Of a DNA stretch of 64,000 nt, positions 14,151 through 64,000 are shown piece by piece. Source of the DNA: Schmidtea polychroa (taxonomy: Eukaryota); the NCBI GenBank assembly GCA_044892525.1, contig CM097888.1, positions 46,190,001 through 46,254,000 of the forward strand. Direction: 5' to 3'. The translations under genes were made by a program, and so were the position numbers. Position 1 is the first letter of the stretch. Each line of letters starts with the position of its first letter. Under the pieces are notes generated by a model that saw only the letters and a list, made by a program, of their open reading frames with translations, ran no database searches and was not told the DNA's origin.

Positions 14151-14379
14151 NNNNNNNNNNNNNNNNNNNNNNNNNNNNNNNNNNNNNNNNNNNNNNNNNN
14201 NNNNNNNNNNNNNNNNNNNNNNNNNNNNNNNNNNNNNNNNNNNNNNNNNNNNNNNNNNNNNNNNNNNNNNNNNNNNNNNNNNNNNNNNNNNNNNNNNNNN
14301 NNNNNNNNNNNNNNNNNNNNNNNNNNNNNNNNNNNNNNNNNNNNNNNNNNNNNNNNNNNNNNNNNNNNNNNNNNNNNNN
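14151..14379. other. Assembly gap (229 N)
   Basis: N run; it truncates the 3' LTR of the adjacent Gypsy element. Confidence 1.
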
Positions 14380-14522
14380 ATCCATCTTTAAATTTGCAGC
14401 AAAAATCTTGAAACTAACAATATATATTTAATCAAAGAATTTCTAAATAACAAGTTTTAATTAATTCGCAAAACCGCCAATTCCAAATTATTTAAACAAA
14501 CAGATATCTAACTCTCCCCTTC

Positions 14523-17558: not shown

Positions 17559-17605
17559 CTCTTCTTCTGCCTCGTCTCTTCGTTGTCCATTTCCTATTTC
17601 ACAAT

Positions 17606-43088: not shown

Positions 43089-43304
43089 TCTAAATGGTTA
43101 TGGATAAATATCTTTCTAATTCCGGTGATCGACTTTTTAACCACGCCCTTTTGCCCCTTACATAATCTTTATATATAATATATACTATTATACTTATACT
43201 ACTTATAAAATTACAATTTAATTACATATTAATTCATTTATATGTAGGACCCATTAGGTTTAAGAAATAAAGATTATGTAAGGGGCAAAAGGGCGTCTTA
43301 TATA

Positions 43305-43580
43305 TACTATATATAATTAATATACAAATAAGTTACAATTTCTATAAGTAGTATAGGTGTAGTAGTGTAAATGAATAACATGTAATTAAATTGTAATTTT
43401 ATAAGTAGTATACGTATAATAGTATATATAATTAATATACAAATAAGTTACAATTTTTATAAGTAGTATAGGTCTAGTAGTGTAAATTATTAATATGTAA
43501 TTAAATTGTAATTTTATAAGCAGTATAAGTATAATAGTATGTATAATTAATATACAAATAAGTTATAGTTTTATAAGTAG
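43305..43580. repeat. AT-rich tandem repeat, ~118-bp unit, ~2.3 copies
   Basis: Recurring TATAATTAATATACAAATAAGTTAC...GTAATTAAATTGTAATTTTATAAG. Confidence 0.75.
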
Positions 43581-44581
43581 TGTATGCCAAATATAAGTTG
43601 GAAAGAGGGGATAGGTAATTTGCAAGTATGAAAATTTATGTTTCCCATTGGTATCAGTAGGATAAATATAAGTGTAGGTTTATGAGGGCTTATAAAAATA
43701 AGGGGATGTGATTGAAGTTTATAATTTCTCAGAAACATATACCTACAAACAGCATACCTCGGTAATATTAGTATGGATGAATTGGTAAAATCAATTTTAC
43801 AAATGATAAGTACACTAATACCATTATGAATGGCTACATATTGCTGGTTATGAGGACACTCTATAAAATCGCCAACTATAAATTTTTTACCAAAATACAG
43901 ATTAAGTAGTAGTTTGCTTAAGTAACATGAATGGTTGGAGATAGGGTACTATAGGGTTAATCGGTAAACTTATGGTTTGTATATAACATGATCATATTTA
44001 GGTATAGATGGTTAATGGACTTTATAGGCGATATATATGTATAATTTATGGGTTTATTAATAGTTACAAAGAACTTGTGAATTTTATAAGCAATATGTAT
44101 AGTAAAATATTTATGAATACTCTTAGAGGATTTATGAGTTCCATAAGTAAGGTATGTATAATGAATAAACTGATTTGCAATTTTATAAGTAAAAATATAT
44201 GTACAGTAATCTTTTAGTAGTAGTCGTAGATGATCTATAGGTTTTATAAATAAGGTACATATAATTAATATATTTATTAATAGACGTGAATAAGCAATAC
44301 ATTTAATACTAATTCTAGGGGGTTGGTGGGTTTATGAGGGATGCAGGATTGCAATTTATACTTTTATTATAAGTTTTTATAATTTATATTTTTATGAAAA
44401 CCAATTAGTTTAATTTTATAGTTTATATATCAAATTGTAGGTTTTTTATATATGTTTACAATTTATACTTTTATTATAAGTTTTTACAATTTACATTTTT
44501 ATGACTTCCAATTAGTATAATTGTATAAGTTTTATATTTTACTTTTTATGACATCCAATGAGTATGAGGTTATAATTTATA

Positions 44582-45154
44582 TATCAAGTTGTTGGGCTGA
44601 GTCGAAGGGTAGTTGGGAATTAGGGAAACTGAACTAAAATAAAATAAAAAATAAAAACAAATAAATTGACAAATAAAATAGAATAAAACATAAGAAAAAC
44701 AATAATTAGAAAATAAGAATTAAAACAAAAATATAAAGATGAGAAAAATTAAAATAAGACAATAGAATGACAGAAAACAACGTAAAATATAGTAAATACT
44801 AAGAAAATTAAGGAAAATAAATAAAAACATAATTTTAATAAAGAAAGTAAGAAGAAATAACTCGAAAACAAAGAAAATAAATTAAATTAATAAAATTAAG
44901 CGGTACTCAATTCTAATTGGTCCGCGCAAACAAAAAATTAATATATAAGCAGACATTAAAAACATAACAATTACTGTTAATCAAACCACCTCAATAGGTA
45001 AATCTATTCTACGACGGAACAGAACTCCAGCAACTAACGCACGATAACTCACGAGGACAATTCCAAGATTCAAAAGATTTTTACAGAACTAGACGACACT
45101 CGAGCATTAACTGATTCGACATAGTACCCTTTTCGACTCAGCCCATACTTGTAT
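44582..45154. mobile_element. MITE-like element, or LTR-internal inverted repeat, ~570 bp
   Basis: ~30-bp imperfect inverted repeats CAAGTTGTTGGGCTGAGTCGAAGGGTA / TACCCTTTTCGACTCAGCCCATACTTG; non-coding A-rich interior. Confidence 0.45.
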
Positions 45155-47400
45155 CAATCATTCGGTAAGGATTTTTGATTGCTTATTTTGGATTTTTAAG
45201 TAATGCGTATAGTTCAATAATATTCTTAATTTAAAAAATGGTTTTTCTTTTCGTTTGATGTTAGAATGCTTTATTTAAATTAATAATTTGCTTAATAATA
45301 AATGATTTGCTCGTTCAGAATTATCGATCTTTTATGAATTAATTTTTATGAATTATTATTGGAGACCATTCAATTTGGCGAGAAACGTGGCGTTGAGATA
45401 CTCTATGTCATGGTGTGAGGTGCCTTCGGGAGCTCCACCGGTGGACATAGGGTATTTCAATCACGCAGCTAGATTGGGCCGAAATGTGAGGGCTTCTTCA
45501 CGGGTCCAATCGCTGAAGGTGCGACTAAAATCTATAGGTAAATGGGAGCCGAAATTGATAGTCATGTAGTGATTGAAAACAAAGATATGTAATAAAGGAA
45601 TCGGAAAATTTTGATATATTCGCGTAGTGATTGAGGGTGTCACACTATCGTCTTCGAATATCGGTTTTGCTAAGCCTAAATTTTCTCTATCATCAATTTA
45701 AGTCGTGTGTCAAAAATTGTTCAAACCTTAGTGAGGCTATCTGTGACATATCTTCGATGTTCATACTTTTCACTCAGAATCTGTTCCGACCAATTTTTAG
45801 CCTATGACCTTCGGAACTGTTATTCCGTTCATCTAAAAGTTCTCTTAAAGACATAGTTGCCAGGAAGTCAAAGTAGATTGCTTCATACAAGTATTAGGTT
45901 TACTCGAAATGACTGCTTGTAAATAAAGAGTAGAATCAGGTAAAATGATTTAATCCAAATAGTTATTCAGAATTGCATAAAACGAGTTCGTTCCAAATAA
46001 AAGTTTAAATTACATAAAATGATTCGCTATCATAATTTTTTAGAATTTTATATAAAAGGAGTTACATACAATTAATTATCATAATCACATAAACTATTGG
46101 CATCAAATAATTTAAAATTGAAAAATGCAACCAATGCGAGCCACGAAAAATATATTTCTTCAAGTTAGCCGATGATCTTGTTAATTAAATATAAAATTCC
46201 AGTATTTCGTGGGGTTGGCAATCCAGCAGGGATAGGTAGAAATCCTCCAGCACTTAGAGAGTAGATCGATAAACTAGGTTTGAGGAATTAAAGACGAAAA
46301 ATCCACCCTTGGAGCAAGCTATATCCAACATTTGCAATACAGATAATTATAATTTTTCCAATAATCCGGTGAGAATTAGTAAATCAGCGCCATATGCAGG
46401 AGAATTGTGAGTGATTACGCGATAGATAAAATTCTGAGAAAATGACATCTTGCAAACATTTAACACCTACAATTGTAGTATAATTAAGTGTGTGACAGCA
46501 CACCCTGCATGCGTCAGCAGTTACAGACTCACCTAGTGGCCAAGTACAGTGGGCAAAGTCACACACGCCTCTACTCAGGAAAAATCCGACGAACATACCA
46601 GATGGAATTTCTATTAACCAATTAGACTACCGACAGGTATCATATTTCACCGCTCCGGATTAATAGTCAACCACCGGGCTGACATTTCCTTATCTACCTA
46701 GCAGGAATGGTCGGCTACTAGCTCACATTGATACTGTGCTCAGTTATCATAAAGACAATATTTTTTTTTTGTGCTAAACCCGATCGTAATTATGATTATT
46801 CTCTCTTTATTATCGTAGAATGAATGGCACGGAAATTATGTCATTTTTGACATAATTATCATTAATATTAATGTCGAATATTATTAATAAATAATATTTA
46901 AACCAGGCAAAACACATGTGAATAATTAGAGAGAATGAATAAATAATTAAAAATTTAAATAGCCTTCCGTTTATCCTGTAGGAATTAATCAACAGACATT
47001 ATGGACCCCTTTTCCATAGATAGTCACTCGACCCCAGTACATGATACCCTCATCAAAATCACTCGTACGGGGGGAGAAGTCAACAAGGTAACTCGATTCT
47101 CGGTAAACGTGAAATAATGACTTCAAGCGGATTGACTAAATAATCAATTTTCGTCGATCTAGAATTCCTCTCACTAATAGTATTACCTTCCTTTCCGTGT
47201 ACGGAATCTGGTTTGATCGATTTATCTTCTTATAATCAAAGACCCAAAAGGTATGAGAATCCATCGTGCAGTAGTACTTGTCTTGACTGGTAAACTCATA
47301 TTTTTGTCTATGATCAGTAAAGTATGAATGGGGTCAGATGGTGACACTCCCGTTGAGTTAATTATTTTCATTTTTCATTTTTTTTCACAGTCACTCAAAA

Positions 47401-48147
47401 ATGTTGCCAAATTCCAAGACCGTTCTTCGACCTTGTTTTTCTTGCTCCGACAAGAATTCAATTATCAAAGAGCTCCAGGCCCAAATCGGAAAGCACAAAA
47501 GAAGGATAGATGAGTTGGAGGGGACATGGTTTAGTCCCACCCAGATGAAGGAGGCTCAGAAGAAGCTGCATCGAAGCGAGCACTGTAGAGACGCGTTGAT
47601 TTCCGAGAGTCGGGCGCAGAGGAGCCTGATAAAAGAGCAGTCGGAGGCGCTGCACAAATTATACGTTGCAGCAGCTACAAGGAGGATCGCGAAGATCCCA
47701 ATTAATGAAGCCAGTAATCTTTTCCCAGCACATCATGATATCTCTGGCGGATCTTCTTCTCCAGTCGGAAAGTCCTGCCATGGGTGCGTAGAGACCGAGC
47801 TCTCACCTAAAGAACCAGAAATCATCTTTACCGGAACCAGTAAAGCGTTACCTGTGATGGCATCTACCTCTGCAGCACCCCCGACCAATCCAACGGCATC
47901 GAAGCCAAAGCGTCGGCAATTATCGAGAGCCGAACGCAAAAGGAAACAGCGGGAACGCGTAACCGCCAAACAGAACCAGCAATCGTCGGATCATCTAATC
48001 AAAGTCATCAACCCTCCTGCAGTAATCGATTTAGCATCAGTGATCTCAGGGCGAATCATCTCCGCCGCTGGGGTTTCCTGGGAGGAAAATGCCTCTGAAT
48101 TTTTCGACTTGGAAGATCTGTTGGCAGACTCAGAGTGGGAGAAATGA
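47401..48147 (+). CDS. LTR-encoded 248-aa protein (coiled coil, basic NLS-like stretch, acidic tail), unknown function
   Basis: Strong polypyrimidine-CAG acceptor ending 47390, just before the ATG; KRRQLSRAERKRKQRER; AATAAA at 48284. Confidence 0.6.
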   Translation: MLPNSKTVLRPCFSCSDKNSIIKELQAQIGKHKRRIDELEGTWFSPTQMKEAQKKLHRSEHCRDALISESRAQRSLIKEQSEALHKLYVAAATRRIAKIPINEASNLFPAHHDISGGSSSPVGKSCHGCVETELSPKEPEIIFTGTSKALPVMASTSAAPPTNPTASKPKRRQLSRAERKRKQRERVTAKQNQQSSDHLIKVINPPAVIDLASVISGRIISAAGVSWEENASEFFDLEDLLADSEWEK

Positions 48148-48283
48148 GAACTTCTCCGTAACAAGTCTTCGTTCACTGAAATGACCCGAACATTGTCGGA
48201 TAACATTTTTACCTTTGTTTCTTTTCCTGTGGTCGTAACTTTTATTGTATAGGTGTTAGGTATATTTGTGTGATAATCTTAAT

Positions 48284-48289
48284 AATAAA
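48284..48289 (+). terminator. Putative LTR polyadenylation signal
   Basis: AATAAA followed by a GT/T-rich downstream element, ~420 bp upstream of the LTR end. Confidence 0.5.
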
Positions 48290-48719
48290 CCATTTTGTCT
48301 GCATACGTTTCCTTTTGTGTTCATCCTAGGACAGTTGAGTTGAAATTGGTGAAGGGTATTGAGAGTCATAAAACTAGGAGGAGCATTAGTCAGTTGGCAA
48401 ACTCAGCTAGAAACATTGCGATGGGGCGACGGAATGAGTAGACGTAAGTCCTTCTATCGGCAGTCAGGGTTGGGAAGTCGAGGCCCCAGTAAGGAGTAGT
48501 CCGGAGGAGCTGGTTCACCTGCTTACTGGCGTCTCGCCGGCATAGCACAGTTCCAACGTGAAGCAATTCACGGGTGCTATGTTGGAGTGTAAGTTATGTA
48601 CGGGTCCCGCTCGGCGATGACCAAATAAATGATGGGCGAAATCGAGGTGGCATTCATCCTCTAGACTAAAGTTGCACTAGAAAGGGGTCATCCGAGTAGT
48701 GTACCCGCAACATAATTTT

Positions 48720-48737
48720 TGGGGGCTCAGCCGGGAT
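48720..48737 (+). promoter_or_regulatory. Primer-binding site, tRNA-Pro type
   Basis: TGGGGGCTCAGCCGGGAT matches 16/18 of the canonical MLV Pro PBS TGGGGGCTCGTCCGGGAT; it lies 7 nt after the CA LTR end. Confidence 0.8.
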
Positions 48738-49035: not shown

Positions 49036-49521
49036 ATGACGGAATTCAATGATCAGATACAACAACTAATCAACTTCATAAACATCGAGAATGACTCCCT
49101 TAAAACGCTGACACAAAAGAGAGAAAGAATTAACATCATACTACTCCAAGCAATCGGGCAAACACCAGCCGTCCCCAACCACATGTTATTAGCCACAGGA
49201 CTAAGTCACCCAGATGGGAAGGTAAACCCGGAAACCGTGTACCAATGGTATCAAGAGAGATTGAACCACCCAGCATTAAATCTTGATTATCAACGTATAA
49301 AAGATCCCTTAAATACCATATCAGATACAATCGAGCGGAAAATACAAGAAAAACTGACTCTACTACGAACTTGCCTTGCTTGTAAACTTCGTCCTATTCG
49401 CGTACTGTTTTTGCCGTGTGGACACCTCAGTCACTGCGAAGAATGCGGGAACGAGCTAACAAGATGCACGATATGTAAGCACGAGATAAAAGAAACTCAT
49501 ATGGTCTACTATGGTGAATGA
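49036..49521 (+). CDS. 161-aa protein with a C-terminal IAP-type C3HC4 RING finger (putative E3 ligase), no BIR
   Basis: CLACKLRPIRVLFLPCGHLSHCEECGNELTRCTICKHEIKETHMVY; splice acceptor TTTTTTTTTTAG 2 nt before the ATG. Confidence 0.88.
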   Translation: MTEFNDQIQQLINFINIENDSLKTLTQKRERINIILLQAIGQTPAVPNHMLLATGLSHPDGKVNPETVYQWYQERLNHPALNLDYQRIKDPLNTISDTIERKIQEKLTLLRTCLACKLRPIRVLFLPCGHLSHCEECGNELTRCTICKHEIKETHMVYYGE

Positions 49522-50158
49522 ATAGTGAAAGATACAGTAACATCTAGGAACATTGAATTTACACGGCTATTGAATGAGAATAAGTGTAATTGATGTGTGA
49601 AAATTGATTAAAGTTTTAATTTTTATTTTTTATGGTGAATAAATTTTTGTTATGAACTGAGTAATTATGGCTTTTAATCCTATTTTATAATTGTTTTTTG
49701 AATCAAACGAAAAGAAAACCGAACTAACGTGGAATTAGTCCCAATATAGGCTGTAAGGGTACAAACCGAGCCACCTTAGGGCGGTACGTTCTATCATACG
49801 ATAAAACCAATTGGGAGGGGATAACCGATCAACCTAAGTGAGGAGCGTAGGGCGGGGTACCATCGCAAATGATGAGAAGTTTCTGCGGCATGACTGATCA
49901 CCATGCCAATGTAGAAATGGATCATCGCGATCGTCGTGCGTTTTGAGCAAGGGGGGAAAGGGGACACACTCCCGTGCGGTAAAGATTAAGCCAACAAATT
50001 AAAAATAGACAGAGAAAATGGTAATCTTGAGTAAAAGAAGAAAGAGAGAAGTAGAAGGATGCAGAGTAAAGAATGTTAAAGCCGAGCTGTAAAATAGTCC
50101 AGCCGGTCAAGGGAAACGAAAACTGAGCTGTGAAAAGTCCAGCCAGTTCGGAGATATT

Positions 50159-50456
50159 AAGATCGAGTTGTTGAATAGTCCAACCGATCAGAAGGAGGAA
50201 GATTGAGCTGTTGAATAGTGCCAGCCAGTCGTAAGATCGAGTTGTTGAATAGTCCAACCGATCAGAAGGAGGAAGATTGAGCTGTTGAATAGTGCCAGCC
50301 AGTCGTAAGATCGAGTTGTTGAATAGTCCAACCGATCAGAAGGAGGAAGATTGAGCTGTTGAATAGTGCCAGCCAGTCGTAAGATCGAGTTGTTGAATAG
50401 TCCAACCGATCAGAAGGAAGAAGATTGAGCTGTTGAATAGTGCCAGCCAGTCGTAA
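50159..50456 (+). repeat. Tandem array of 4 x 74 bp (each two ~37-bp related halves) in the retroelement leader
   Basis: GATCGAGTTG recurs at 50161, 50235, 50309 and 50383; degenerate half-units at ~50080-50150. Confidence 0.95.
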
Positions 50457-51168
50457 AGGCCTAGAAAAGCGAGAGATAGCAGTTAAGCTACAATGAGGTA
50501 ATATTTAAATTACTAGTGAAATGGAATATTAAAGCTAGCTAGAACAAATAGAAGGTAATTACGAAAATTTGAGTTTAGAGAGGAAATAAACGAGCTCGTG
50601 GAAAAGATAATAAGATTATAATGAAAAAGGAAAGGGAAGAAGGAAACGAATTAAAGAGATAATGGAAAATAAAGAATAGGCGAAACGATGATAATGAGTA
50701 AAGAGGAAAGTAACCAACTAATTAAAGGGACCCCAGTGAAGTAGAGAAACTCTACGGAATAATATTTTTCTTTTTTGGGCGAAGCGGGAGAATATATTTT
50801 ATTGGTTCCAGAGTAGAACCGAGTGAGATAATAGTAAATACGAAAAGTAAAACAGCGACAACCGCGCAAAAAGGACTAGGAAAACGAAAGGGGGGTAATA
50901 AGCAGTGACCGACAACGACCTATTCCTATTATAAGTGATAAAAATAGATAATTATTACGACTCTATAGATAATTGTTACTACCCCATATAGATAATTTAA
51001 AATCGACGAAAATTTCGGGCTGATGGGAGATTATAACCCGCGGAAGTAATTGCATAAAAAATAGGGGAAGCATAAACAGAACCTAAAAGGTGTCTGTGTT
51101 TGAATGTTGCAGAAAGAATGATGAAGTCGTGTAAGCAGATGCAACACGAGATCATTTTTTCATTTTAG

Positions 51169-51827: not shown

Positions 51828-54800
51828 ATGACGAATGTCGTAAAAACCGACGAGTATAAAGAAAAGTTCCGAGGAGAACCGTTCAATGGAAATGCAAACA
51901 AGCTAGCAACGTTCATAACTAATTTTGAAGTTTATATCACTGTGTGTGGATGGACACCCGAAGCAATTAGTAAAAGGATGCCGTTGTTTTTGTGCGATAG
52001 CGCATTAGAAGTATATTTAGAAGCTAAAGAGAGAGATACGAAATTAGAAAAGTGGGAAGATATCAAAACATTCCTGAAGAAAACCTTCGGAGCCAGTAAG
52101 CCAATCAACCAGGCGTTGGGCGAACTAGCAAATAGGAAACAAAGAGCAAATGAATCCATCACGTTATATGCCAGTGAATTGCGGAGATTGGCAAAGAAAG
52201 CAATGAATGGGAAATTACCAGAAGAAAATTTGATCGGTTATTTCATAGAGGGATTACGCCGAGAAGAAGTAAGAGCCTCAGTAGGTTGTCAAATGTGCAA
52301 AACATTAGAGGAAGCCATAGATTGGGCTACAAGATGCGAGCTCCACCTTCCAGCTCAAATGAATATTATGCAAGAGGAGGGAAGGATAATGACAGCAATA
52401 GCGAAAGCGGATAACGGAGATAACAACAATCAAGAACCGAAAATGAATCAATTTATACCAGGAGCGCACCAAATTTTCAAACCACCACAAGGACGATCAA
52501 ATGGGAATAATGGTAATCGTAACAACCCGAATAATGAGAACAATTTTAATAATCGACGAAATATGAACGATAACAAGCAGTGTCGAACATGCGGTAAACC
52601 AGGACACTGGGACAGAGATTGCTATAGAAATTCAAATTGTAATCGTTGCGGACGGCGTGGACATACCGAAAATGTATGCCAATTGAGAGGTTGTTTTAAC
52701 TGTGGTCAGCCAGGTCACATCTCCAGAGATTGCCGAGAAAGGGGCCAACAACAACGACCACCACAGCGAAATAATAATTATATGGCGAATCCGCAACGAC
52801 AAAGTAACCCTAGCGAAGGAAAACAAATGAACGTTATGCAGGAAATCTCGCAGATGAAACAGATGATGCAACAAATGATGAGACCGAGACCGGAATCAGC
52901 ACCACAACAAACCCAGAATATACGTATGATGAGGAGTACCGAAAATCTCAACAATTATGAAGTGCATCAACATGTACAAGAATGGCAAAGACTACAGGCC
53001 GAGGAAGAGAGGATAAAACAAGAACGCAACCAACAACGACAAGAACAACCATTGCGAATTAATATGATGAAGTTAGTAAAAGACATGAAAAGCCAGTATT
53101 GCTACAATTACGGGAAAAACCCAAGGGTAGTACCCATGACTGAACCAGAAAAGGTAACAGAAACAACAACGGAAATGAAAACAGAGAATTCAACCACGAT
53201 TTTAAAAGGAAACCCGAGAATTCAGAAAATATTCTGGAAAAAGATAAAAGATAAAATCGAAAAAGAACATAATAAAGCGAAAGCCGAGACAGAAGATGAA
53301 AATAACAAGAGCAAGGAACAAACCAGTCAACTAAACCACCAAATGCTACAAGAATTAGAATCAGAAGAAACAACGATATTCGAAAGAAAGAAACTAAAGA
53401 GAGTACCAAGGATGAGAAATTTGCAAATCAATATGATGAAAAGGACAAAAGATGTAGCATCGTCAGACGAAGAAGAAGACTATGTAAGTAGTTTGGGTGG
53501 AGAAATACTACAGCTAAATGAAATAAGCGAACCTCCAAAAGGGGAAATCAAAGAGGAAGAAAGCGAAAGCGAGATAACAAGTGGAAGTGAAGACGAGGAT
53601 ATCGAAATAAAGTTGAGAAAAGCAAGGGAGGAAGCGATAAAACAGGTAGCCGAAATACTCCCGGCGGTAGTGAGAAACCAAGAGTTCATCGACGTAATAC
53701 CATTCAGGCGATTCGTGCAAAAAGTGATGAAATTGGAAAGAAACGAGAAAGATTTAATACCAAACGAGGAAAAATCAATTATAAAAAAGTATATGGAAAA
53801 AATGAAGCAGGCCGATACCACGCGGTATGTAATAAAAATCGGAACGAGCAGAGGACTTGAAAGAATGTGGATCAAAAGTACAGTCACCGACGAACTTTTC
53901 GATTGGATACGAGAACATTTGGGAAATTCGAGAAAGAAAGAATATCTGTATCAATACCAAGGAGAACAGATCAAACCAGATATGCACTTAGTAGATGCAC
54001 TAATATGGCCAGGAGAAACGCAAATACTGAAGTTGCATAAAGAAAAACAACCAGCCAACCTTTACGATTGGGCTAAAGATGCCAAGGCAGAATATGATTT
54101 TAATATCAAATTGAAATTAGAACAAATAAAACAATGTACTCTGAGACGAAACCTGGATAAGCTGATCAAACAAATTCAAGAACAAGTAGAAGACAACTGG
54201 GAATTACTCATCACCAGACGAGCCCCAGCCATGTACGAACTAATGAGCCGATTGCGAGATACAGAAATGCTCCGGATGAGTGATTGGAGAACCATAAATT
54301 TGATCCACAAATATGGAAGGTTAAAAGAAACCCAGCCACAGAGGTTGGAAATAACCATATGGTTACCGAACGAAGAAAAACGACGAATAAAAATGAGCAA
54401 TCGGAGTACAGTGGATGACTTGGTATCAAAGATAAACCAAGAGATAACGGAAAAGGTACGTAGCGAAAGTAGTGATGGTATGGTGGATGATGTAGTCATG
54501 ATGTACGATAAAATAATATTACGAGCAGAAGACGACACCTCGTTAAGCGAATTGGGTATGTGGAACAATCATCAGATCATCAGGATAGTACCAATGGATG
54601 AATTTCGAACAAGAGATGTAATCTATCAAAAAGAAATACGAGACCGGATGAAAACGTTATATCAAAAATCTACAGAAATAATTGAAATCCACCAACAATG
54701 GTTAAAAGAAAAAGAACTACAAGGAAAAATCACGAAATTAAGCACCAGATCCTGCAGACGAACCCCATGGGAAAGAGTGTGGAATGCAGAAAATAAGGAA

Positions 54801-57800
54801 TGGGAAATCCGGAAAGGAATCTTCGTAGAAACAGACATTGGTGAGACAGAAAGTGAATCGGAGGAAGAAGAAGAGGAACCTCCAGAATATGAAGAGGAAG
54901 CAAGGGGACAGACATCAGATGACGAAAGCGAGACGGATGTCACATCAGAAAGCGAAAATGAAGCGAGACATATTCATGCAATGAGGAAAAAGGAACGTGA
55001 ATATGCTGATATGGACGGCGAGGAAGCGACGGAAGCAAGAGAACGAGAAGAGAAAGAAAGATATAAACAATTAGGCGATATCTTAGCAATGGGAGCGAAA
55101 AATCAAAAACGCCAAGTAGTAGCGTTGGCTAACATCATCTTAAAGACATCAGAGAACATCCACAATCTGAGAGGAATGGCAAAGGCAATAGAGGAATACC
55201 GGCAATATAATGAATGGTATCCAGAACAGCTAGAACAAATTATTCGAAAATGGAGAAATCAGGAATGGGCACAAGACACTCAGGAGAGGAATCACATCCG
55301 AATCAAGTATCCGGACAAGAGCATCGAGGAACTAGAGGTGCATCCAACAACAAAGATTAGAGAATTAAAAAAGAAATTAGCATATGAAACTCCATTCCAT
55401 CTGCAACTGTTCGGAAAATCACTAGACGATAATGCAGACGTCGGAATAACACCCATGAGATTGGAAGAGACAAATGTGTTAACAATGGCAGAAACGTTGG
55501 GAAAGCCGTTAAAAAGGAAAAGTAAAATTACTAAACCAACAAAAAGCAGTTTGAGTACTCCAAGTCCGAACAAAGCACCAAGTAAATCTAATGAAACTGA
55601 AGAAGTTGAAGAGATAATCCTGGAAGATAGTGACGATGAACCAGGAGAAAGATCACCGCTATTAGTAAGATGGCCGACAGGAGCCGAAATGTGGACTAAT
55701 AACCAGCCATCAACGAGTTATCAACAACCAACGAAACTAAACATCAAAGAAATCATCGACAACACTACGGAAACCGAAACGGATGAACAATTCCAGAAGC
55801 AAAGAGAACCAACGAAAGTAACACCAGAAGGTCAAACCGATAAAATAATAGATGAATGGAATGAGTGGCTAAGAAATAACGATAGCTCATTACCCAGAAC
55901 GGATAACGAAAGAAATCCGAATTACGAAAATACCAGAGAAGCCGGAACGATGATGGAAAAACGGGCAAAAGGAAGACCTAAGAAACAAGGAGAAAAGTCT
56001 GAGTTCAAAACCAAAGAACAATTAAAGCAAGAACAAGGGCAAGTTCGATTAGAAAAATTGGATAAAATAGTATGGGATCTAAAGGAAGCCCAACCAACGA
56101 TCGAAAGAGGAGAAAAATGGATACGAGAATTGATCAAAGATATGTTAATAATAACAAACCCACAACTTAGACGTTTGTGGCAACGGAAAGTAGCCAGTAC
56201 GGAAGCTAGACAATTATGGCACATCGTTTCGGGGATAATCCCAAAGTTAATCAAAGAGAAAACGAAAACCACCAAAACGGATTGGGATGAAACGAAGAGA
56301 GTGATTGCACAACTCACGACAAATGCAAATGATGACGAACATCATCTAGTGGTAATCACGTATTTGATGTATAATTTGATGGGACTAGCTGCGAGGAAAA
56401 TACCAAATAAACAGTTTGCAAATCATGTGGAAATGACCGTTTCAATCATAGAAAATACTATTGAACCACATATTATTCGTGCCGGAGGATGGAAAAGACT
56501 GATACAAGCGCCACGAAAAAATGAGCAAGAAAGGTCGATGCAAGTTAGATTGAAAAAACTGTTAAATGAACTAGAATGGGAACTACCGATGAAAGATCCC
56601 GCAAGCAGAAAAGCATCAATAAATTCGTTAATGATGACTATGATGATATGGATGTTGTGCACAAGTGGAGCAACGGGTTTTACCATCTACGATTGTGATA
56701 ATATGATAATGAGAGATATATACTCATTGAGAGACATAGAAGAATGCAGACAAGCATCACCCAACAAATTAGACATAGTAAGAACAAAAGTTACTTACCA
56801 TGTATATCAGGAATCAGATTTCATCAGAACGCAAGCAAGGGAATGCGTGGTATCAAAAAAGGTACTCGCATATTACTGTGGACAATATTCGTATTCGACT
56901 CTTATACTACCCGGCCTGGACAAAGAAATCGTATCAATACAACGAGAGGACTGTAAAGAGCTATTTAGAACCGGAGCGTTAAAAATGCATAACGGAGTGA
57001 CGATTCACGGACAAACTGGAATGATTAAAACCGAAAGTGTTTACGTATCCGGAAAAGTAAAATCATCAGATGGGTCATGTAACGGAGGTACGTATACGAT
57101 CCGAGGCGAGGTAATATCGGGAGTAGTAGTGATCGAGTCTTATACGGTTGAATTAAAAGAATACGAAGCGCAATTTGACGCAAATAATTACCAAATGAAG
57201 ACCAACCCAGCGTGTAGGGCTACAGAAAACGTATGCAGGACAGGAGTATCAACTATAATCTATGAAGCTAATACCCAAAAATGCCGACTCCAACTGTTAA
57301 AAAGTGCCTTGTTCAATGAAGTAAAAGGAGAAATATATGAGAACGAGAACGACGAGGATGGAAACGACAGGGTGAGAATGCGAAATGGAAAACCAATGCC
57401 ACCATCTCCCAGAGAAAAGAGACTTTCAACGCAGAAGACACCAACAGCATTAATCACAGACGATCCAGATCTAGGTATGAGATTTATCAAAGAGAAAGAA
57501 ACCACCAAATGTGACAGTATAGTATATAAAACCAATTACGCAGGCATCTATATGTCGAGACAAATAATCGATAGAGCAGTGGGAAAGATAGCAACGGAGG
57601 ACGTAAAACTATACTTATATGCAAATAATAAAATGGATTTTCTATTTCATCGCGGACAAACGACCTTGCAAAAAGTATATTACGATCTGATACAAAACGA
57701 TTGTTCATTGAATAAAGAAATATTGAAAACAAAGCTAGCTATTGCGATAACGCACCCAGATAACACGATGCCATCACTCCCATTACCGGATGGACATTTT

Positions 57801-60800
57801 GGTAGAATGGTAGGAGAAGTAATGTACACATACCAGTGTACCAAGACGTATGCACGAATGCCAGAAAAATCTATACTACCCGAAAAGAGATGTGCAAATG
57901 AATTAGAAATCCGTTATAAAGGACAAAATCGATTCGTCCAACCAGTCACTAGAATTATGAATCCAGTGGGTTTCTACCCAAATCTCTTTAACTGTTCTAA
58001 TGCATACGGACCTTTGTATGAAAGGCCCGATGGGAAATGGATGATGTTACCGGGAAAAACCATATCCGAGGAGCCCAAGAAATTTGGATTAATAGAACTC
58101 GCCACAGAGCTGGATTTCAAACCTATAGACGTGTCAAACGGTGGTATGTATTCCCCAGAAGATCTAGAAACAGCACGACTTAACGTACTCTTCCCAGCCA
58201 GACGAGAATCCATTTTGTCAAATATGGTTACAATAACGGGGGGAACAAATTATCAATCAGGCCCGAATTACGAACTGCTACTATCGCCAGACCATTTTCA
58301 ACAAGCCACGTCAAACATGATGAAAGCAATGTGGGGAAGATTCTTAGTTTTTGGACAAATGATGGCCGGGATATTAGGGATCATACTCATAATTCAGATA
58401 GTCAGGGTAATATTAACACAAATGTTAGCTTGTTTTGATATATACAAGCGGGAAAAGAAAGTAAATTGGAAAATGATAGTAGGCTTTCTACCATTTTTAG
58501 CAAAAACCATGGTATTACATGGTCACTCAAAAGACATTCATCGGATAAAGCGATTGATTAAAATATTAACAAAGATTAAAGGAACCGACGAAGAAGTAGG
58601 CAGACGATTCCGGAAAGTAATGTACGATGAAGCAACAAGACGACAATTGAAAAAGAATAAGCCAAAATTCTTGGACCGATTTAGAAGCCAATCATCTAAC
58701 AGCGATAGTGACGACGATGATAACGGGAACGACAAATGTCTATATCCAAACAGAAACCCAAACGAAAAACCAATGGAAACGGCACCATATTGGGAAAAGG
58801 AAAAGACAAATACCTGGATCGCCAATGGAAGCTACATACCACCGGATATCGTGGGACCACAAGCAGCTTTGACCATGACACAAAATATGTATCCGCAATT
58901 ACCAAGTCAACCCGGTATGCATTATATGCCAACACGACGTACCAAAAGTGTAGATCAAGCAGATGACGTAAGAACAATAGCAGCGATGAGTCTACCTGGA
59001 GGTCCAGCAGTAACAGTTATGATTCGAATCAATGGTAAAGAAACCAATGCTATGATAGACACCGGAGTTAATGTATCAGCGATAGCGATTAATCAAATCC
59101 CCAGTAAACACTGGAAAGATATCGAATCAACAACAATTCACATCATAGCATGTAGTAAAGAAACAGTGGACGTGGTCGGAAGATGGTGGACTACTTTGAG
59201 ATACCAGGACAACGAAATTGAAACGTATTTGGCAGTAATACCAAAACTTAGCGTACCATGCATAATCGGAACGGATTTGATGCCAGAATTGTTAAAAGAA
59301 GTCGTAATTGACTTAACAACCATGTGTTTAAAAGACAAAACCGGTAGAATATGCAAAATGAATGCAGTCATCAGATGTCCAGAAAAAATAATAGTACCAG
59401 CAAAATCGCAGATGATTTGTCAGATAAAAGTGGATACGGGTATGGAAGGAGAAGTTATCTTTGAACCAAGCAAGTCATTTGAAAAGCGACGAGAATTACC
59501 ACTCGCAAGAGAAATAATCACAATAAACCAAGAAGGAGTGATACCGCTCAACATCACGAATTTCGAAGAGGAAGACAAAATCATTTATGAGAACGAAAAA
59601 TTGGGAAGATTGACCCCAATGATGGACATAGAATTACCGAAAATGACCAACGAGATGAGCAAAGATGATGAATTATGGACAATAGATAGTATGTTGTTGA
59701 CGAATGATGAAAAGAAAAAATTGCACCGATTGTTGGTAGAATATAAAGATATATTCGCCATCTCAGATTTAGACTTGGGTACATGCGATGTTACCCTACA
59801 TGCAATACCCCTCATAGATGAAACTCCAATTGCATTAAGACCATACAAGCTAGCAGAAATGCAAAAAGAAATAGCCGAAGCAGAAGTACAAAAGATGCTG
59901 GACGCAAAAGTAATCGAACCGAGTTGCTCACCCTGGCAATTCCCAGTGGTCATGGTAAAAAAGAAAGATGGCACCCAACGATTCTGTATCGATTATCGGA
60001 AGTTAAACGCAGTAACCAAGAGAGATACCTATCCATTGCCGGACATCAATGAGATGTTATTGATGTTGCAAGGGGCAGCATATTTTACTTCTTTAGATCT
60101 TAAAAGTGGATACTGGCAAATTAAAGTCAAAGATGAGGACAAAGAGAAAACAGCTTTCACGTTGGGACGAGATCTATATCAATTCAGGAAAATGCCATTC
60201 GGACTAACCAACGCACCAGCATCATTTCAACGATGTATGAACTTTGTCACTCATGGAATCAAACAATGTATGGTATATATTGATGATTTACTAATCTATT
60301 CAGCGACATTTGAACAACATCTGGAAGATATCCGAAACGTATTTATTAGATTAAGACAGTGGAAACTCAAACTCAAACCATCAAAATGCGATTGGGCAAA
60401 GGAAAAAGTCACGTTTTTGGGACACATAGTGTCAGCTAAAGGAAAGGAGCCAGATCCAAGAAACATTGAGAAAATAAAAACATGTCCAGCACCGAAAACT
60501 GTCACCCAAGTTCAGGAATTTCTAGGATTATGCGGATACTATCGCAAATTTATCAAAAATTATGCAGGAATTGCAAAACCAATCCAGGAATTAGTAAAGA
60601 AGGACATTTCGTTCATTTGGGGGAAGGAACAACAAGAGGCGTTTGAAACGCTGAGAGATAAACTAATCGAAGCACCTATCCTCGTACACCCAGATTTTAA
60701 GAAGCCATTTCTATTGGCAACGGATGCAAGCGGGTACGCGGCAGGCGCGATTCTGGGACAATTAGACGATGAAGGAAAAGAGAGAGTAATCGGGTATTAC

Positions 60801-63800
60801 AGTCGAACATTCAAAAAGCACGAAAAGAACTATTCGGTAACAGAACGAGAAGCATTGGCTATAATACAAGCTATCAAACACTTCCGATACTTACTATGGG
60901 GACATGAGATATGTATAACCACAGATCATCAACCATTAGTGTGGTTATGGCAACATAAAGAAGCGTCCAGTAGACTGATGAGATGGGCCATGCAATTGCA
61001 AGAATACTCCCCATTTATAAAATTCAAAGCGGGAAGAGCAAATGCCAACGCCGATTGTATGTCAAGATTTATTTTTCCAGATTTGGTAGATTCAGAAATG
61101 CAAAGCATATGCTTAATAGTAGCGGAAGATTTGGATTTCTGTCAATTGCGAAAGGACCAACAAGAGGACGCGGAATTAAAACAAATTATCGATTATGTAA
61201 AAACCGGAAAGACAGATGTATATGCGAAAGACCAAAAATTAAAAGAACATATGGATAAACACCAACACCGATATATTATAGAGAAAGATTGGTTGCTGAT
61301 AATGGATGGGGAAAAACGATTAATGTGTATACCGGAAAACCGACGAAAAGAGTTGTTAACGCAATATCACGATGGGAGATTGGGAGGACATATGTCATCG
61401 AAAAAGACGTTAGCAAGAATGAAACAGAAATATTTTTGGCCTACGTTAACCGAAGACGTAACCGAATGGGTAAAAAATTGCCTAACTTGTGCGACCAGGA
61501 AAAATACTGGATCGAAATGGAAAGCACCTTTGACGCCAATGCCGGTACCAATAGAGCCGATGACGATGATATCCATGGACGTAGTTGGTCCACTACCAGA
61601 GTCAGATAAAGGAAATATTTACATTTTAGTGATTACCGACTTTCTCACGAAATTTCCAGAAGCATTCGCGATGCCAGACCAAAAAGCTAAAACAATCGCA
61701 AAAATTTTGGTAGAAGAGATATGTTGCCGATATGGAACACCAAAACAGATATTAACCGATCAGGGAACTAATTTTATGAGTGAGATAATGAGCGAAGTAA
61801 CGAACTATTTCAAAATCGCAAAATTGAGAACAGCACCGTATCATCCTCAAACCAATGGGATGACGGAAAGATTTAATGGAACACTTATACAAATGTTATC
61901 AAACTACGTCGACCGTCACCAACGAGATTGGGACGAATATATAAACCTATGTCTTATGGCGTACAGAATGTCGATTCACGCATCAACGAAAATGAGCCCA
62001 TTCAAATTAATGTACGGAAGAGAATGTAATATGCCAATGGACCTGGAATACCAACCACCGATATCGCAGTATATGGAGATCGATGATTATGTTACGAAAT
62101 TCAAGGAAAGAATGCAAGAAATTTGGGAAACTGCGAAATTAAATATCAAGTTCTACCAGGAAAGTTATAAAGATTTACACGATCGAAAGAAAAACGTGAA
62201 GCAACATACGTTTCAAACAGGTGATTGGGTAATGATAGAAACCCCGGAATTAATTCCAGGAACCACAAAAAAGTTACAACGCAACGGAAAAGGACCATAT
62301 GAGATCTTATTCGTAGGCGAAACCAATGTAAGAGTGAAATTGGTAAATAATCCATTCACCAGGCCAATATACGTAAACGTGGCACGATGTAAATCAATTC
62401 CAAAAACCGCCACCAGTCAACCGGAAGGTCGAACATTAACCACACGTTCGCAAACCTACAAAATGAACATGATGCAACAACTCGCAGAACCGATCACTGG
62501 ACGATTGGTCATACAACCATCGGAAGCGGAAAAAATCGTACGAGAGGTAAAGACAAAATTACCCGGATGGGCAAAAGATCGATTAGATTTCGAAATATTA
62601 GGAGGATTATTGACGATGATCGAAAACTATGCAAATAGAGAAAGGACACACCCATTATTGCGAGTAGTCAAAAGCCAATGGCCAATATTATTCACAATAA
62701 CAGATCATTATGGAGACACACCATTACACAAACTCATGAAAGTAGGTAACAACGAGCAAATACTGGAAACAATAGAAGCATTTCACGACTGCAAGCGATC
62801 AACAGAACAAGAAAACAACCAAGGTTACACACCATTAATGATAGCAGCAAACAGAGGCAAAACAAAAGACATCATAACCGCATTACTTGATACTGGATCA
62901 AAAATAACTACACAAGATCGCGAGCGGAAAAACGCACTACATCATGCTATCGAAGGGAAAAGTACCGAAGCGTTCACATCGTTGATGGAGTTACTATCAT
63001 ATGAGGACAATCAAGAAGTTGGAAACATGTATGATGGATTATTAACAGCGATCAAAGAGAAACTGACAACAATTACAGGAGTATTAATCACTTGGAGAAA
63101 CCCAATTAGAAATAATTATATGATCAACGTAAACGAAGCATTCACGAAAGGGGAGAACACGCTTATGAGAGAAGCTATGAAAGGACATCATTTATTCGAA
63201 ATCCCGAATCAATTGTTAGAACGAGGGATAACATTCACAAATCATAAGGATGAGCAGTTATTAAAAAAGCGAATAGACGCATTCGAAAAATCAATATTCC
63301 AATTTACTAACCAAGTACGGAATAAATATTGGGAAACGGTAAGTGTGTTATATATGATGGACACAATGAATAACATCCGCGAGAATTACCTGGATATTAT
63401 CCAAATACTTACAGCAGAGGAACGAATCAATAATCCAAACGGAAAGAAAACGAAAATAAGGTATGGGAAATCAAGGGAACCAAAGTCGACAACGAACCAA
63501 ACGGTCACAAACAACGTCATCGAAACCAAATCAATGAGTATAGATCAAGAGGCAATAATACGCAAAGCAAAAGAAGTATTCTTCGAGGAAACGCTAGAGC
63601 TGTCAGACGAAATAATATTGTCAAAAATAATAAAAGCCGTACACACATACGCAAGAGATCAAACCACGGGTTTAGATATCGGGAAAATCAAAACCTTCTT
63701 GCCTCGAGCATTTACGATGGTGACGAAAGATTCAAGAACACCATTACAACAAGCAATACTAGCTGCAAAAGAGAATAGAGCAATAACGATCATAAGAATC

Positions 63801-64000
63801 CTTGGGGATATGGGCGAGGAAACCAACACGAAAAATGAACAAGGCGAAACCGCCATGATGTATGCAGCTATAACAAAAATACACCCAAAAACACTCCACA
63901 TCCTACATCAATCAGGATCGAGACTAGACGAAAAATCAAACGAAGGGAACTCCACATTGGACTGGGCAACCATACAGCCAAACTTGGAAATGATCAGATT
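51828..64000 (+). CDS. Giant polyprotein, >4057 aa, 3'-partial: Gag CA, 3xCCHC, 3xUBL, Bcl-2-like, signal peptide, fusion glycoprotein, TM, PR, dUTPase-like fold, RT, RNase H, IN, ankyrin repeats
   Basis: Same frame checked at ATG 51828, FTIYDC 56679, DTG 59058, YIDD 60276, IN D61578/D61758/E61866 (D-35-E) and the window end. The ORF track lists no terminated ORF in this frame. The frame is open upstream to 51483. Confidence 0.93.
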   Translation, partial: MTNVVKTDEYKEKFRGEPFNGNANKLATFITNFEVYITVCGWTPEAISKRMPLFLCDSALEVYLEAKERDTKLEKWEDIKTFLKKTFGASKPINQALGELANRKQRANESITLYASELRRLAKKAMNGKLPEENLIGYFIEGLRREEVRASVGCQMCKTLEEAIDWATRCELHLPAQMNIMQEEGRIMTAIAKADNGDNNNQEPKMNQFIPGAHQIFKPPQGRSNGNNGNRNNPNNENNFNNRRNMNDNKQCRTCGKPGHWDRDCYRNSNCNRCGRRGHTENVCQLRGCFNCGQPGHISRDCRERGQQQRPPQRNNNYMANPQRQSNPSEGKQMNVMQEISQMKQMMQQMMRPRPESAPQQTQNIRMMRSTENLNNYEVHQHVQEWQRLQAEEERIKQERNQQRQEQPLRINMMKLVKDMKSQYCYNYGKNPRVVPMTEPEKVTETTTEMKTENSTTILKGNPRIQKIFWKKIKDKIEKEHNKAKAETEDENNKSKEQTSQLNHQMLQELESEETTIFERKKLKRVPRMRNLQINMMKRTKDVASSDEEEDYVSSLGGEILQLNEISEPPKGEIKEEESESEITSGSEDEDIEIKLRKAREEAIKQVAEILPAVVRNQEFIDVIPFRRFVQKVMKLERNEKDLIPNEEKSIIKKYMEKMKQADTTRYVIKIGTSRGLERMWIKSTVTDELFDWIREHLGNSRKKEYLYQYQGEQIKPDMHLVDALIWPGETQILKLHKEKQPANLYDWAKDAKAEYDFNIKLKLEQIKQCTLRRNLDKLIKQIQEQVEDNWELLITRRAPAMYELMSRLRDTEMLRMSDWRTINLIHKYGRLKETQPQRLEITIWLPNEEKRRIKMSNRSTVDDLVSKINQEITEKVRSESSDGMVDDVVMMYDKIILRAEDDTSLSELGMWNNHQIIRIVPMDEFRTRDVIYQKEIRDRMKTLYQKSTEIIEIHQQWLKEKELQGKITKLSTRSCRRTPWERVWNAENKEWEIRKGIFVETDIGETESESEEEEEEPPEYEEEARGQTSDDESETDVTSESENEARHIHAMRKKEREYADMDGEEATEAREREEKERYKQLGDILAMGAKNQKRQVVALANIILKTSENIHNLRGMAKAIEEYRQYNEWYPEQLEQIIRKWRNQEWAQDTQERNHIRIKYPDKSIEELEVHPTTKIRELKKKLAYETPFHLQLFGKSLDDNADVGITPMRLEETNVLTMAETLGKPLKRKSKITKPTKSSLSTPSPNKAPSKSNETEEVEEIILEDSDDEPGERSPLLVRWPTGAEMWTNNQPSTSYQQPTKLNIKEIIDNTTETETDEQFQKQREPTKVTPEGQTDKIIDEWNEWLRNNDSSLPRTDNERNPNYENTREAGTMMEKRAKGRPKKQGEKSEFKTKEQLKQEQGQVRLEKLDKIVWDLKEAQPTIERGEKWIRELIKDMLIITNPQLRRLWQRKVASTEARQLWHIVSGIIPKLIKEKTKTTKTDWDETKRVIAQLTTNANDDEHHLVVITYLMYNLMGLAARKIPNKQFANHVEMTVSIIENTIEPHIIRAGGWKRLIQAPRKNEQERSMQVRLKKLLNELEWELPMKDPASRKASINSLMMTMMIWMLCTSGATGFTIYDCDNMIMRDIYSLRDIEECRQASPNKLDIVRTKVTYHVYQESDFIRTQARECVVSKKVLAYYCGQYSYSTLILPGLDKEIVSIQREDCKELFRTGALKMHNGVTIHGQTGMIKTESVYVSGKVKSSDGSCNGGTYTIRGEVISGVVVIESYTVELKEYEAQFDANNYQMKTNPACRATENVCRTGVSTIIYEANTQKCRLQLLKSALFNEVKGEIYENENDEDGNDRVRMRNGKPMPPSPREKRLSTQKTPTALITDDPDLGMRFIKEKETTKCDSIVYKTNYAGIYMSRQIIDRAVGKIATEDVKLYLYANNKMDFLFHRGQTTLQKVYYDLIQNDCSLNKEILKTKLAIAITHPDNTMPSLPLPDGHFGRMVGEVMYTYQCTKTYARMPEKSILPEKRCANELEIRYKGQNRFVQPVTRIMNPVGFYPNLFNCSNAYGPLYERPDGKWMMLPGKTISEEPKKFGLIELATELDFKPIDVSNGGMYSPEDLETARLNVLFPARRESILSNMVTITGGTNYQSGPNYELLLSPDHFQQATSNMMKAMWGRFLVFGQMMAGILGIILIIQIVRVILTQMLACFDIYKREKKVNWKMIVGFLPFLAKTMVLHGHSKDIHRIKRLIKILTKIKGTDEEVGRRFRKVMYDEATRRQLKKNKPKFLDRFRSQSSNSDSDDDDNGNDKCLYPNRNPNEKPMETAPYWEKEKTNTWIANGSYIPPDIVGPQAALTMTQNMYPQLPSQPGMHYMPTRRTKSVDQADDVRTIAAMSLPGGPAVTVMIRINGKETNAMIDTGVNVSAIAINQIPSKHWKDIESTTIHIIACSKETVDVVGRWWTTLRYQDNEIETYLAVIPKLSVPCIIGTDLMPELLKEVVIDLTTMCLKDKTGRICKMNAVIRCPEKIIVPAKSQMICQIKVDTGMEGEVIFEPSKSFEKRRELPLAREIITINQEGVIPLNITNFEEEDKIIYENEKLGRLTPMMDIELPKMTNEMSKDDELWTIDSMLLTNDEKKKLHRLLVEYKDIFAISDLDLGTCDVTLHAIPLIDETPIALRPYKLAEMQKEIAEAEVQKMLDAKVIEPSCSPWQFPVVMVKKKDGTQRFCIDYRKLNAVTKRDTYPLPDINEMLLMLQGAAYFTSLDLKSGYWQIKVKDEDKEKTAFTLGRDLYQFRKMPFGLTNAPASFQRCMNFVTHGIKQCMVYIDDLLIYSATFEQHLEDIRNVFIRLRQWKLKLKPSKCDWAKEKVTFLGHIVSAKGKEPDPRNIEKIKTCPAPKTVTQVQEFLGLCGYYRKFIKNYAGIAKPIQELVKKDISFIWGKEQQEAFETLRDKLIEAPILVHPDFKKPFLLATDASGYAAGAILGQLDDEGKERVIGYYSRTFKKHEKNYSVTEREALAIIQAIKHFRYLLWGHEICITTDHQPLVWLWQHKEASSRLMRWAMQLQEYSPFIKFKAGRANANADCMSRFIFPDLVDSEMQSICLIVAEDLDFCQLRKDQQEDAELKQIIDYVKTGKTDVYAKDQKLKEHMDKHQHRYIIEKDWLLIMDGEKRLMCIPENRRKELLTQYHDGRLGGHMSSKKTLARMKQKYFWPTLTEDVTEWVKNCLTCATRKNTGSKWKAPLTPMPVPIEPMTMISMDVVGPLPESDKGNIYILVITDFLTKFPEAFAMPDQKAKTIAKILVEEICCRYGTPKQILTDQGTNFMSEIMSEVTNYFKIAKLRTAPYHPQTNGMTERFNGTLIQMLSNYVDRHQRDWDEYINLCLMAYRMSIHASTKMSPFKLMYGRECNMPMDLEYQPPISQYMEIDDYVTKFKERMQEIWETAKLNIKFYQESYKDLHDRKKNVKQHTFQTGDWVMIETPELIPGTTKKLQRNGKGPYEILFVGETNVRVKLVNNPFTRPIYVNVARCKSIPKTATSQPEGRTLTTRSQTYKMNMMQQLAEPITGRLVIQPSEAEKIVREVKTKLPGWAKDRLDFEILGGLLTMIENYANRERTHPLLRVVKSQWPILFTITDHYGDTPLHKLMKVGNNEQILETIEAFHDCKRSTEQENNQGYTPLMIAANRGKTKDIITALLDTGSKITTQDRERKNALHHAIEGKSTEAFTSLMELLSYEDNQEVGNMYDGLLTAIKEKLTTITGVLITWRNPIRNNYMINVNEAFTKGENTLMREAMKGHHLFEIPNQLLERGITFTNHKDEQLLKKRIDAFEKSIFQFTNQVRNKYWETVSVLYMMDTMNNIRENYLDIIQILTAEERINNPNGKKTKIRYGKSREPKSTTNQTVTNNVIETKSMSIDQEAIIRKAKEVFFEETLELSDEIILSKIIKAVHTYARDQTTGLDIGKIKTFLPRAFTMVTKDSRTPLQQAILAAKENRAITIIRILGDMGEETNTKNEQGETAMMYAAITKIHPKTLHILHQSGSRLDEKSNEGNSTLDWATIQPNLEMIR

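Follow-up and report, generated by a model that had tools for sequence, protein, structure and literature searches.

The window, a 64,000-nucleotide stretch spanning positions 46190001-46254000 of contig C4 of Schmidtea polychroa, very probably carries a Burro-type Ty3/gypsy LTR retroelement of 30 kb that belongs to a young, high-copy family. The element combines a gB-type Env with the other products in a single Gag-cargo-Env-Pol polyprotein, is likely reverse-transcribed from a tRNA-Pro primer and likely integrates with duplication of 4 bp. All features described below lie on the forward strand, and those beyond the window are given at window-equivalent positions.

The giant polyprotein and its domains

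Translation of the window reveals an ORF running from an ATG at 51828 to 64000, i.e., 4,057 residues, within a stop-to-stop frame that opens at 51483 and is still open at the window end. At the given base composition, a stop-free run this long would arise with a probability of about 1e-126. The frame of the window copy continues to a stop at window-equivalent position 64304, 304 bases past the window, yielding a product of 4,158 aa; in most sister copies examined the product has ~4,617 aa. A preliminary description had claimed a giant single ORF of >4050 aa that continues beyond the window, and both parts of this claim are borne out, with computational translation of 51828-64000 finding no in-frame stop. 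Its absence from the ORF track would be accounted for if the program discards frames that have no end inside the window. The A-rich character ascribed to the coding strand in that description is likewise evident from base counts: A makes up 40.7% and T 20.2% of the strand, and A occupies 44.9% of third codon positions.

The domains follow one another in the order capsid, three CCHC knuckles, three ubiquitin-like (Ubl) domains, a weak Bcl-2-like domain, a class III Env, protease-reverse transcriptase-RNase H-integrase (PR-RT-RH-IN) and ankyrin repeats. Pfam matches in the polyprotein comprise Retrotrans_gag, zf-CCHC, Monjiviricetes_fusion (9e-70), RVP, RVT_1, RNase H, integrase and ankyrin; their order places Env in frame between Gag and the pol enzymes and the ankyrin repeats in the same frame, as the preliminary description had it.

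In Gag, the capsid (Retrotrans_gag, 51981-52262; Pfam 1e-10) is followed by a nucleocapsid with three CCHC zinc knuckles detected by Pfam at 52581-52733 (beginning at 52581 and 52638, with the last at 52692-52733), which corrects slightly the 52582-52735 first given for them. The pol region comprises an aspartic protease (59016-59291, with DTG at 59058), RT plus RNase H (59955-61007, with YIDD at 60276) and an integrase with a GPY motif (61329-62387), all recognized by Pfam, and the ankyrin-repeat region matched by Pfam spans 62751-64000. DTG, YIDD, the D/E/D/D residues of RNase H, and the HHCC and D,D,E motifs of the integrase, which we take to be the catalytic motifs, are all present, in agreement with the earlier reading of a complete PR/RT/RH/IN with intact catalytic residues. 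Between PR and RT lies a conserved spacer domain (59355-59747) that can be aligned across four families and occupies the place where Burro has a dUTPase-like domain; Pfam and further searches returned no dUTPase match for it. The PR-RT-RH-IN order, the TG...CA LTR ends, the tRNA primer site and the target duplications seen in sister copies are features of Ty3/gypsy elements (Metaviridae).

The Env ectodomain (56658-58427) is preceded by a predicted internal signal peptide at 56607-56657, suggested by a weak hydrophobicity peak (1.62) at residue 1600, contains a furin-like REKR motif at 57411, and ends in a transmembrane helix at about 58359-58427 (~residue 2180). A search among 1.84 billion representatives gave 1,063 matches, with retroelement-sized proteins first and then many of ~650 aa. 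A sequence search against solved structures gave 0 matches, and it was the fold search alone that recovered them: using a model with pLDDT 88 (117-row alignment), the best solved structures were those of herpesvirus gB (4e-13), and the best viral models those of chu-like virus glycoproteins (3e-34, TM 0.64). The Env cysteines are conserved. Hence, by its modelled fold, Env is a class III fusogen, with fusion activity as a prediction. A class III ectodomain between a predicted signal peptide and a TM helix, together with multiple near-identical intact copies, are features of gB-type GAG-ENV-POL elements. Eight database polyproteins share this Env at 37-40% identity, and Env stands ahead of pol in all five that were scanned. 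A search of the genome with PF24664 scored only a different, more compact family.

Cargo and accessory genes

The region between Gag and Env carries ubiquitin-like and Bcl-2-like cargo, in line with the apoptosis and ubiquitin modulators of the preliminary description, albeit with a weak Bcl-2 match. Ubl1 (53811-54071) and Ubl2 (54336-54623) are detected through a joint profile of nine Ubl segments, which matches ubiquitin/ISG15 with single-stretch matches down to 2e-9; alone, neither segment has a ubiquitin match in Pfam. Ubl3 (55281-55511), which is likewise covered by the profile, also scores singly (Pfam ubiquitin, E 0.015; a ubiquitin variant in the PDB, E 0.04), and because only this domain does so, the other two are less sure. 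The diverged Bcl-2-like domain (56100-56522; Pfam E 0.06) has no usable match in the protein atlas. A profile built from four families picks up Bcl-2/Bcl-xL in all 60 matches listed (best E 0.008), the match being confined to the last ~25 positions, i.e., the C-terminal BH2-like end. A fold model of the 991-aa cargo region (7-row alignment) reached a pLDDT of 35.6, too poor for use.

Upstream of the polyprotein, the leader encodes a predicted E3 ligase (49036-49521) that lacks a BIR and has a C-terminal RING of the IAP type (Pfam zf-C3HC4_3, 4e-11), whose best solved relatives are the RINGs of cIAP2/cIAP1 (4e-10). It is matched in 8 of 8 sister leaders and has a homologue in the leader of the sister family discussed below. 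The idea that it is a relic of a lost IAP was rejected, because the IAP-bearing sister family has a leader RING of its own. The leader also contains a tandem repeat with a 74-bp unit (family D12, 50084-50527). Within the LTR lies a further ORF (47401-48147; 261 codons stop to stop from 47362) that matches no Pfam family and has homologues in other elements.

Past the window follow, in order, a frameshifted membrane-protein tail, a 128-aa ORF, a TRAF, a 368-aa ORF, a 253-aa ORF, a small ORF and the next LTR. The TRAF is complete, with RING, zinc fingers, coiled coil and MATH, and the 368-aa and 253-aa ORFs read as coiled-coil-like. The scanned ORFs of the 30.3-kb unit have no BIR, and Pfam finds no MATH inside the window polyprotein. 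An acceptor-like AG lies 0-10 nt upstream of the ATG in all six accessory genes checked (10 nt before that of the LTR ORF, in a T-rich context, and 2 nt before that of the leader RING gene); of these sites, only two show a clear T-run. In full-length copies, the C-terminal ~460 aa are predicted to form a second membrane protein: this extra tail of a sister copy shows two hydrophobic peaks, one signal-like and one anchor-like, and late hydrophobic peaks recur in 4 of 4 distant polyproteins. The tail module matches no Pfam or PDB family.

Element unit, priming and tandem arrangement

The element unit measures 30,304 bp, with LTRs of 4.1 kb. The 5' LTR (44590-48712; 4,123 bp, TGTTG...CAACA) recurs at window-equivalent 70721, so that extension past the window, as proposed in the preliminary description, recovered the 3' LTR. 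The two differ by 2 substitutions and one 50-bp indel, all within the first 1.3 kb. Seven nucleotides behind the LTR starts an 18-nt primer-binding site (48720-48737), an exact complement of the 3' end, with CCA added, of the host tRNA-Pro(TGG). Across the genome, the tRNA-type pattern is matched 2,164 times, and the first 100 matches on the list belong to a 475-bp array.

The same extension did not yield the polypurine tract that had been expected and that is usual, though not strictly defining, for Ty3/gypsy elements: none precedes the 3' LTR at the window locus, at 10 family junctions or in the sister family, and its place is taken by a conserved G+C-rich motif. In this respect the sequence does not fit the standard plus-strand priming step. 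A hairpin considered as a substitute for the tract proved non-significant, being no better than shuffles (z -1.3), and was discarded.

In the assembly, the locus is laid out as LTR-internal-LTR-internal-LTR-partial with a period of 26,181 bp, and the window unit is the first. Units 1 and 2 show 100% identity across all internal blocks compared, break sites included. The third unit breaks off within gag, and next to it lies a high-copy repeat that includes a piece of the sister family's LTR in inverted orientation; because the last unit is cut off and then gives way to the repeat, no target duplication can be read here. At a second tandem (C4:69.9 Mb) three identical LTRs lie inside one 4-bp duplication, for a third (C1:72.67 Mb) the evidence comes from the positions of junctions and primer sites, and RT spacing suggests two further ones. 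The tandem at the window locus likely arose by unequal recombination between two LTRs. Assembled contigs of 4 of 4 runs cover the element.

Age, intactness and selection

The description of the element as young is upheld at the level of the family. Of eight single copies for which both LTRs are available, seven are flanked by target duplications of 4 bp, two of these lying in simple repeats. Many frames are full-length, and the LTR pairs are 0-0.27% apart in 10 of 10 cases, a range that overstates youth because the copies were chosen as the closest to the window copy. Among the 150 RT matches listed, 56 lie in a stop-to-stop frame of 4,732 codons, equal to 4,617 aa when counted from the ATG, and 64 are in frames of 4,700-4,800 codons; the window copy and its tandem twin have a frame of 4,273 codons. 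When 10 sisters were read stretch by stretch, 7 were open through residue 4,057, and 8 of 10 examined run beyond the stop of the window copy to the family end (~4,617 aa). Relative to all six aligned sisters, the window copy as assembled carries three small deletions, at most 500 bases past the window edge, through which it loses the last ~460 aa of the family. Accordingly, the absence of lesions asserted earlier holds inside the window and for the family, but not for the window copy as a whole, which is frameshifted just beyond the edge.

Summed pN/pS values for the window copy versus 7-8 sisters, which are not independent because all sisters were compared with one reference copy, are lowest in the capsid (0.01), Env (0.03), IN (0.03) and RT-RH (0.05). 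Intermediate values are seen in the Ubl domains (0.07-0.19, with Ubl3 at 0.07), the Bcl-2-like domain (0.10), ankyrins (0.12), TRAF (0.13), tail (0.15), leader RING (0.20), 368-aa ORF (0.23) and 128-aa ORF (0.26), and high ones in the 253-aa ORF (0.42) and PR plus spacer (0.49). Every domain measured is under purifying selection.

Proposed expression and life cycle

These features can be assembled into a model in which the element RNA would be read as a single ~4,600-aa chain. The internal signal near residue 1600 and the stop-transfer helix at ~2180 would thread only Env into the ER, with Gag/cargo and Pol staying cytosolic; the C-terminal membrane protein would enter by the same route, through a signal/anchor pair of its own. 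Spliced RNAs that use the AG just before each ATG may supply the products of the accessory RING, TRAF and coiled-coil genes.

The motif [I/M/V]-x-[M/A/I/V/L]-[M/L], which recurs at domain edges, would be the cleavage site of the element protease. Such cleavage-like motifs follow the capsid, the knuckles and the integrase and also precede the Ubl modules, and like words flank the protease. The pattern [IM][NRH][IVMA]M, which was picked post hoc, is found at 7 places where 0.56 are expected, a number reached in 0 of 2,000 shuffles, and the looser pattern [ILMV].[ILMVA]M shows no enrichment (127 of 2,000 shuffles). Of ten aligned positions tested in the sister family, one of which is no motif site in the window, seven carry a like motif; the sites after PR and after IN are not kept. 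On account of this conservation in the sister family the motifs are probably protease sites, and the conserved domain-edge motif offers a testable processing map for the 4,600-aa chain.

The Ubl, Bcl-2-like, RING, TRAF and ankyrin cargo would likely dampen host cell-death and innate signalling. Infectivity is suggested as a possibility by the intact, conserved Env, and the chances that the fusogen would let particles enter other cells appear about evenly balanced. A more far-reaching version, which we consider doubtful, is that of an infectious, actively spreading retrovirus-like flatworm agent that would derive two surface proteins from a single polyprotein, with the gB-like fusogen occupying its middle and a type I membrane protein acting as partner at its C-terminal end, and that would prime its plus strand without a polypurine tract.

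Alternative explanations

The element could alternatively spread within cells only, with Env being kept for intracellular budding or a host-side benefit and no infectious particle being formed. A second-hand report of Burro1 mutualism, according to which Burro1 supports stem-cell survival via its IAP (PMC13465017), lends this some plausibility; the published finding that Burro1 RNAi gave no rescue of a smedwi-2 phenotype (PMC8532177) is neutral on infectivity. However, Env is as constrained as RT and IN, has a confident full class III fold with conserved cysteines, and belongs to a family without the very IAP behind Burro1's reported host benefit, all of which render this explanation improbable. 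Another possibility is that the element is a distinct, undescribed kind that is Burro-like in size only. We found no identical published family, the database polyproteins are only 37-45% identical, and the closest published Env segment, that of Smed_errantivirus_5, is ~55% identical by eye. Against this, the domain order fits the published Burro description (PMC6431247), and the same genome harbors a sister family with 87% RT identity on a 100/100 branch which possesses the MATH and BIR-RING described for Burro1. This makes a separate kind very unlikely.

The possibility that the long frame or the tandem is a product of the assembly, be it a chimera or a falsely duplicated unit, draws on the 100% identity of tandem units 1 and 2 and on the fact that no read or contig spans the locus. 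Yet dozens of loci, spread over four large contigs, carry the same frame, and unrelated database proteins have the same domain order; further, LTR1 differs from LTR2, and elsewhere a tandem has its three LTRs within one target duplication. Taken as a whole this explanation is scarcely credible, and the long frame is no artefact; for the tandem alone, an assembly artefact is a small but real prospect. The reading of the locus as a copy of a young Burro-type element with a gB-type Env is therefore preferred.

Relationship to known elements and viral glycoproteins

The Env domain links the element to two groups of viral proteins. Chuvirus/Monjiviricetes glycoproteins share with it the PF24664 match and have the closest predicted folds, and herpesvirus gB has the class III fold in common with it. 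These viral glycoproteins, at ~20% identity, are encoded by stand-alone genes, unlike the window Env, which is embedded in a retroelement polyprotein. Among retroelements, flatworm GAG-ENV-POL elements have been filed as HSV/gB-type errantiviruses, namely Smed_errantivirus_1-6, with listed spans of 14.5-18 kb (PMC13524379). The window family shares with them the position of Env before pol, the gB-type class III fold and the presence of multi-copy intact elements. The Env domain I-II segments are homologous, with Smed_errantivirus_5 being the closest (102 of 187 residues identical in an ungapped by-eye count), and by eye the window Env matches none of the six exactly. Their tRNA primer is listed as "none" (PMC13524379), in contrast to the exact tRNA-Pro site of the window family. 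In the main text of that paper the words ankyrin, accessory, polyprotein, fibronectin and polypurine are absent.

In section 7 of PMC6431247, Burro is described as an element of >30 kb with long LTRs and a 4,873-aa chain in which env lies in frame between gag and pol, and its domains as a gag with three CCHC knuckles, Ubl, Bcl-2, a dUTPase-like domain, ankyrins, MATH and BIR. In terms of that account, the window family has in common with Burro a size of >30 kb, long LTRs, a polyprotein of >4,000 aa, a Gag with three CCHC knuckles, Ubl and Bcl-2-like domains, an in-frame env, ankyrins, accessory ORFs and TRAF-related cargo. The resemblance to the giant planarian Burro elements noted in the preliminary description, in size, long LTR and single ORF, hence stands, and the domain order agrees as well (PMC6431247). 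Whether the combination of domains was novel had been left for checking, and it is not: it has already been described (PMC6431247), with the gB-type GAG-ENV-POL class covered in PMC13524379. The window family is thus a new family with an already published architecture, and its discovery enlarges a known kind without introducing a new concept. Neither section 7 of PMC6431247 nor the main text of PMC13524379 mentions the lack of a polypurine tract or the second membrane protein, and a literature search on these points returned no paper; other Burro literature may cover them.

Several differences set the two apart. The chain of Burro1 has 4,873 aa versus ~4,617 aa in the window family; Burro1 has a MATH in its polyprotein and a BIR/IAP gene, whereas the window family lacks both and instead encodes a full TRAF in a separate downstream ORF and, in the leader, a RING protein without BIR. 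For the Burro Env, a 2019 HHpred match suggested the gypsy Env/baculovirus F type, with mononegavirus matches too (PMC6431247), whereas the window Env folds as class III. Given the lack of MATH and BIR, the window family is a Burro-type family but not Burro1, a comparison made with Burro as published.

The sister family in the same genome (loci L096-L105, L113, L118 and L119; loci L120-L122 matched nothing) is 87% identical in RT-RH and grouped with the window family at 100/100 in an 18-row tree. The two share the primer site, leader RING, three Ubl domains, Bcl-2-like domain, Env, 128-aa ORF, TRAF, coiled-coil ORFs and the non-purine motif at the 3' junction. The sister family differs in having a MATH that separates Ubl2 from Ubl3 and, behind TRAF, a BIR-RING gene of IAP type, neither of which is found in the window family; BIR matches number at least 150 in the genome. 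The sister family is likely the counterpart of Burro1. Two families this close in RT that differ by MATH and an IAP gene constitute a natural comparison, which could be used to learn if Burro1's reported benefit to stem cells requires the IAP, and which is useful because the window family reached many intact copies without one.

LTR junctions, primer site and tandem arrangements

In the Burro-type window family, the LTR is separated from the primer-binding site by a spacer of 7 nt. The tRNA matched by this site is the tRNA-Pro(TGG) encoded by a tandem gene array with a 475-bp period in the genome, G000, at contig C1 (L129; G000:C1:130.90-130.95 Mb), and the corresponding tRNA-Pro(TGG) pattern has 2,164 matches across G000. 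At the opposite internal junction, both the window family (locus L001:8680-8720) and its sister family (locus L105:5155-5195) present a conserved non-purine motif in the position of the polypurine tract. Separately, AT-rich repeats of 57/115 bp, in direct and inverted arrangement, lie at window 43170-43593, about 1 kb 5' of the LTR of the window element.

In addition to the window locus, an LTR-sharing tandem of the window family was fully verified at G000:C4:69.86-69.92 Mb. A further such tandem is recognized by its junctions at G000:C1:72.65-72.70 Mb, and others are indicated by spacing only at G000:C2:177.69-177.72 Mb and on contig C158.

Other elements and a candidate host gene in the window

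Inspection of the remainder of the window shows an open frame of 2,917 codons on the minus strand (28405-37158), which contains long arrays of 111-, 135- and 159-bp repeats and a Pfam match to PP1_bind (5e-10). The frame appears to be the repeat exon in a host gene of the Ki-67 type, a name suggested by the Pfam match. A small ordinary gypsy element, also on the minus strand (14380-19040; gag 17606-18361, pol 14523-17687), carries two identical copies of a 134-bp repeat, one at 18907 and the other at 14380 next to a run of Ns (14151-14379), and is placed outside the Burro-type clade in the RT-RH tree. Further, a plus-strand frame of 542 codons (8134-9762), identified through Pfam as a Tc5/pogo-type DDE transposase, is flanked by inverted repeats (3348-3611 and 10856-11119) that may be the ends of the element carrying it.

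Comparison with the sister family and distant polyproteins

In the sister family, TRAF is directly followed by the BIR-RING IAP gene (loci L098, L104 and L105; G000:C1:201.10-201.12 Mb). BIR matches in G000 number at least 150, occupying every scored row, and most of these scored matches reside in frames of 392-393 codons. The database proteins P0002-P0009 are distant Gag-Env-Pol polyproteins, several with two or three protease-like domains; in P0007 the ankyrins sit between Env and PR, rather than after IN.
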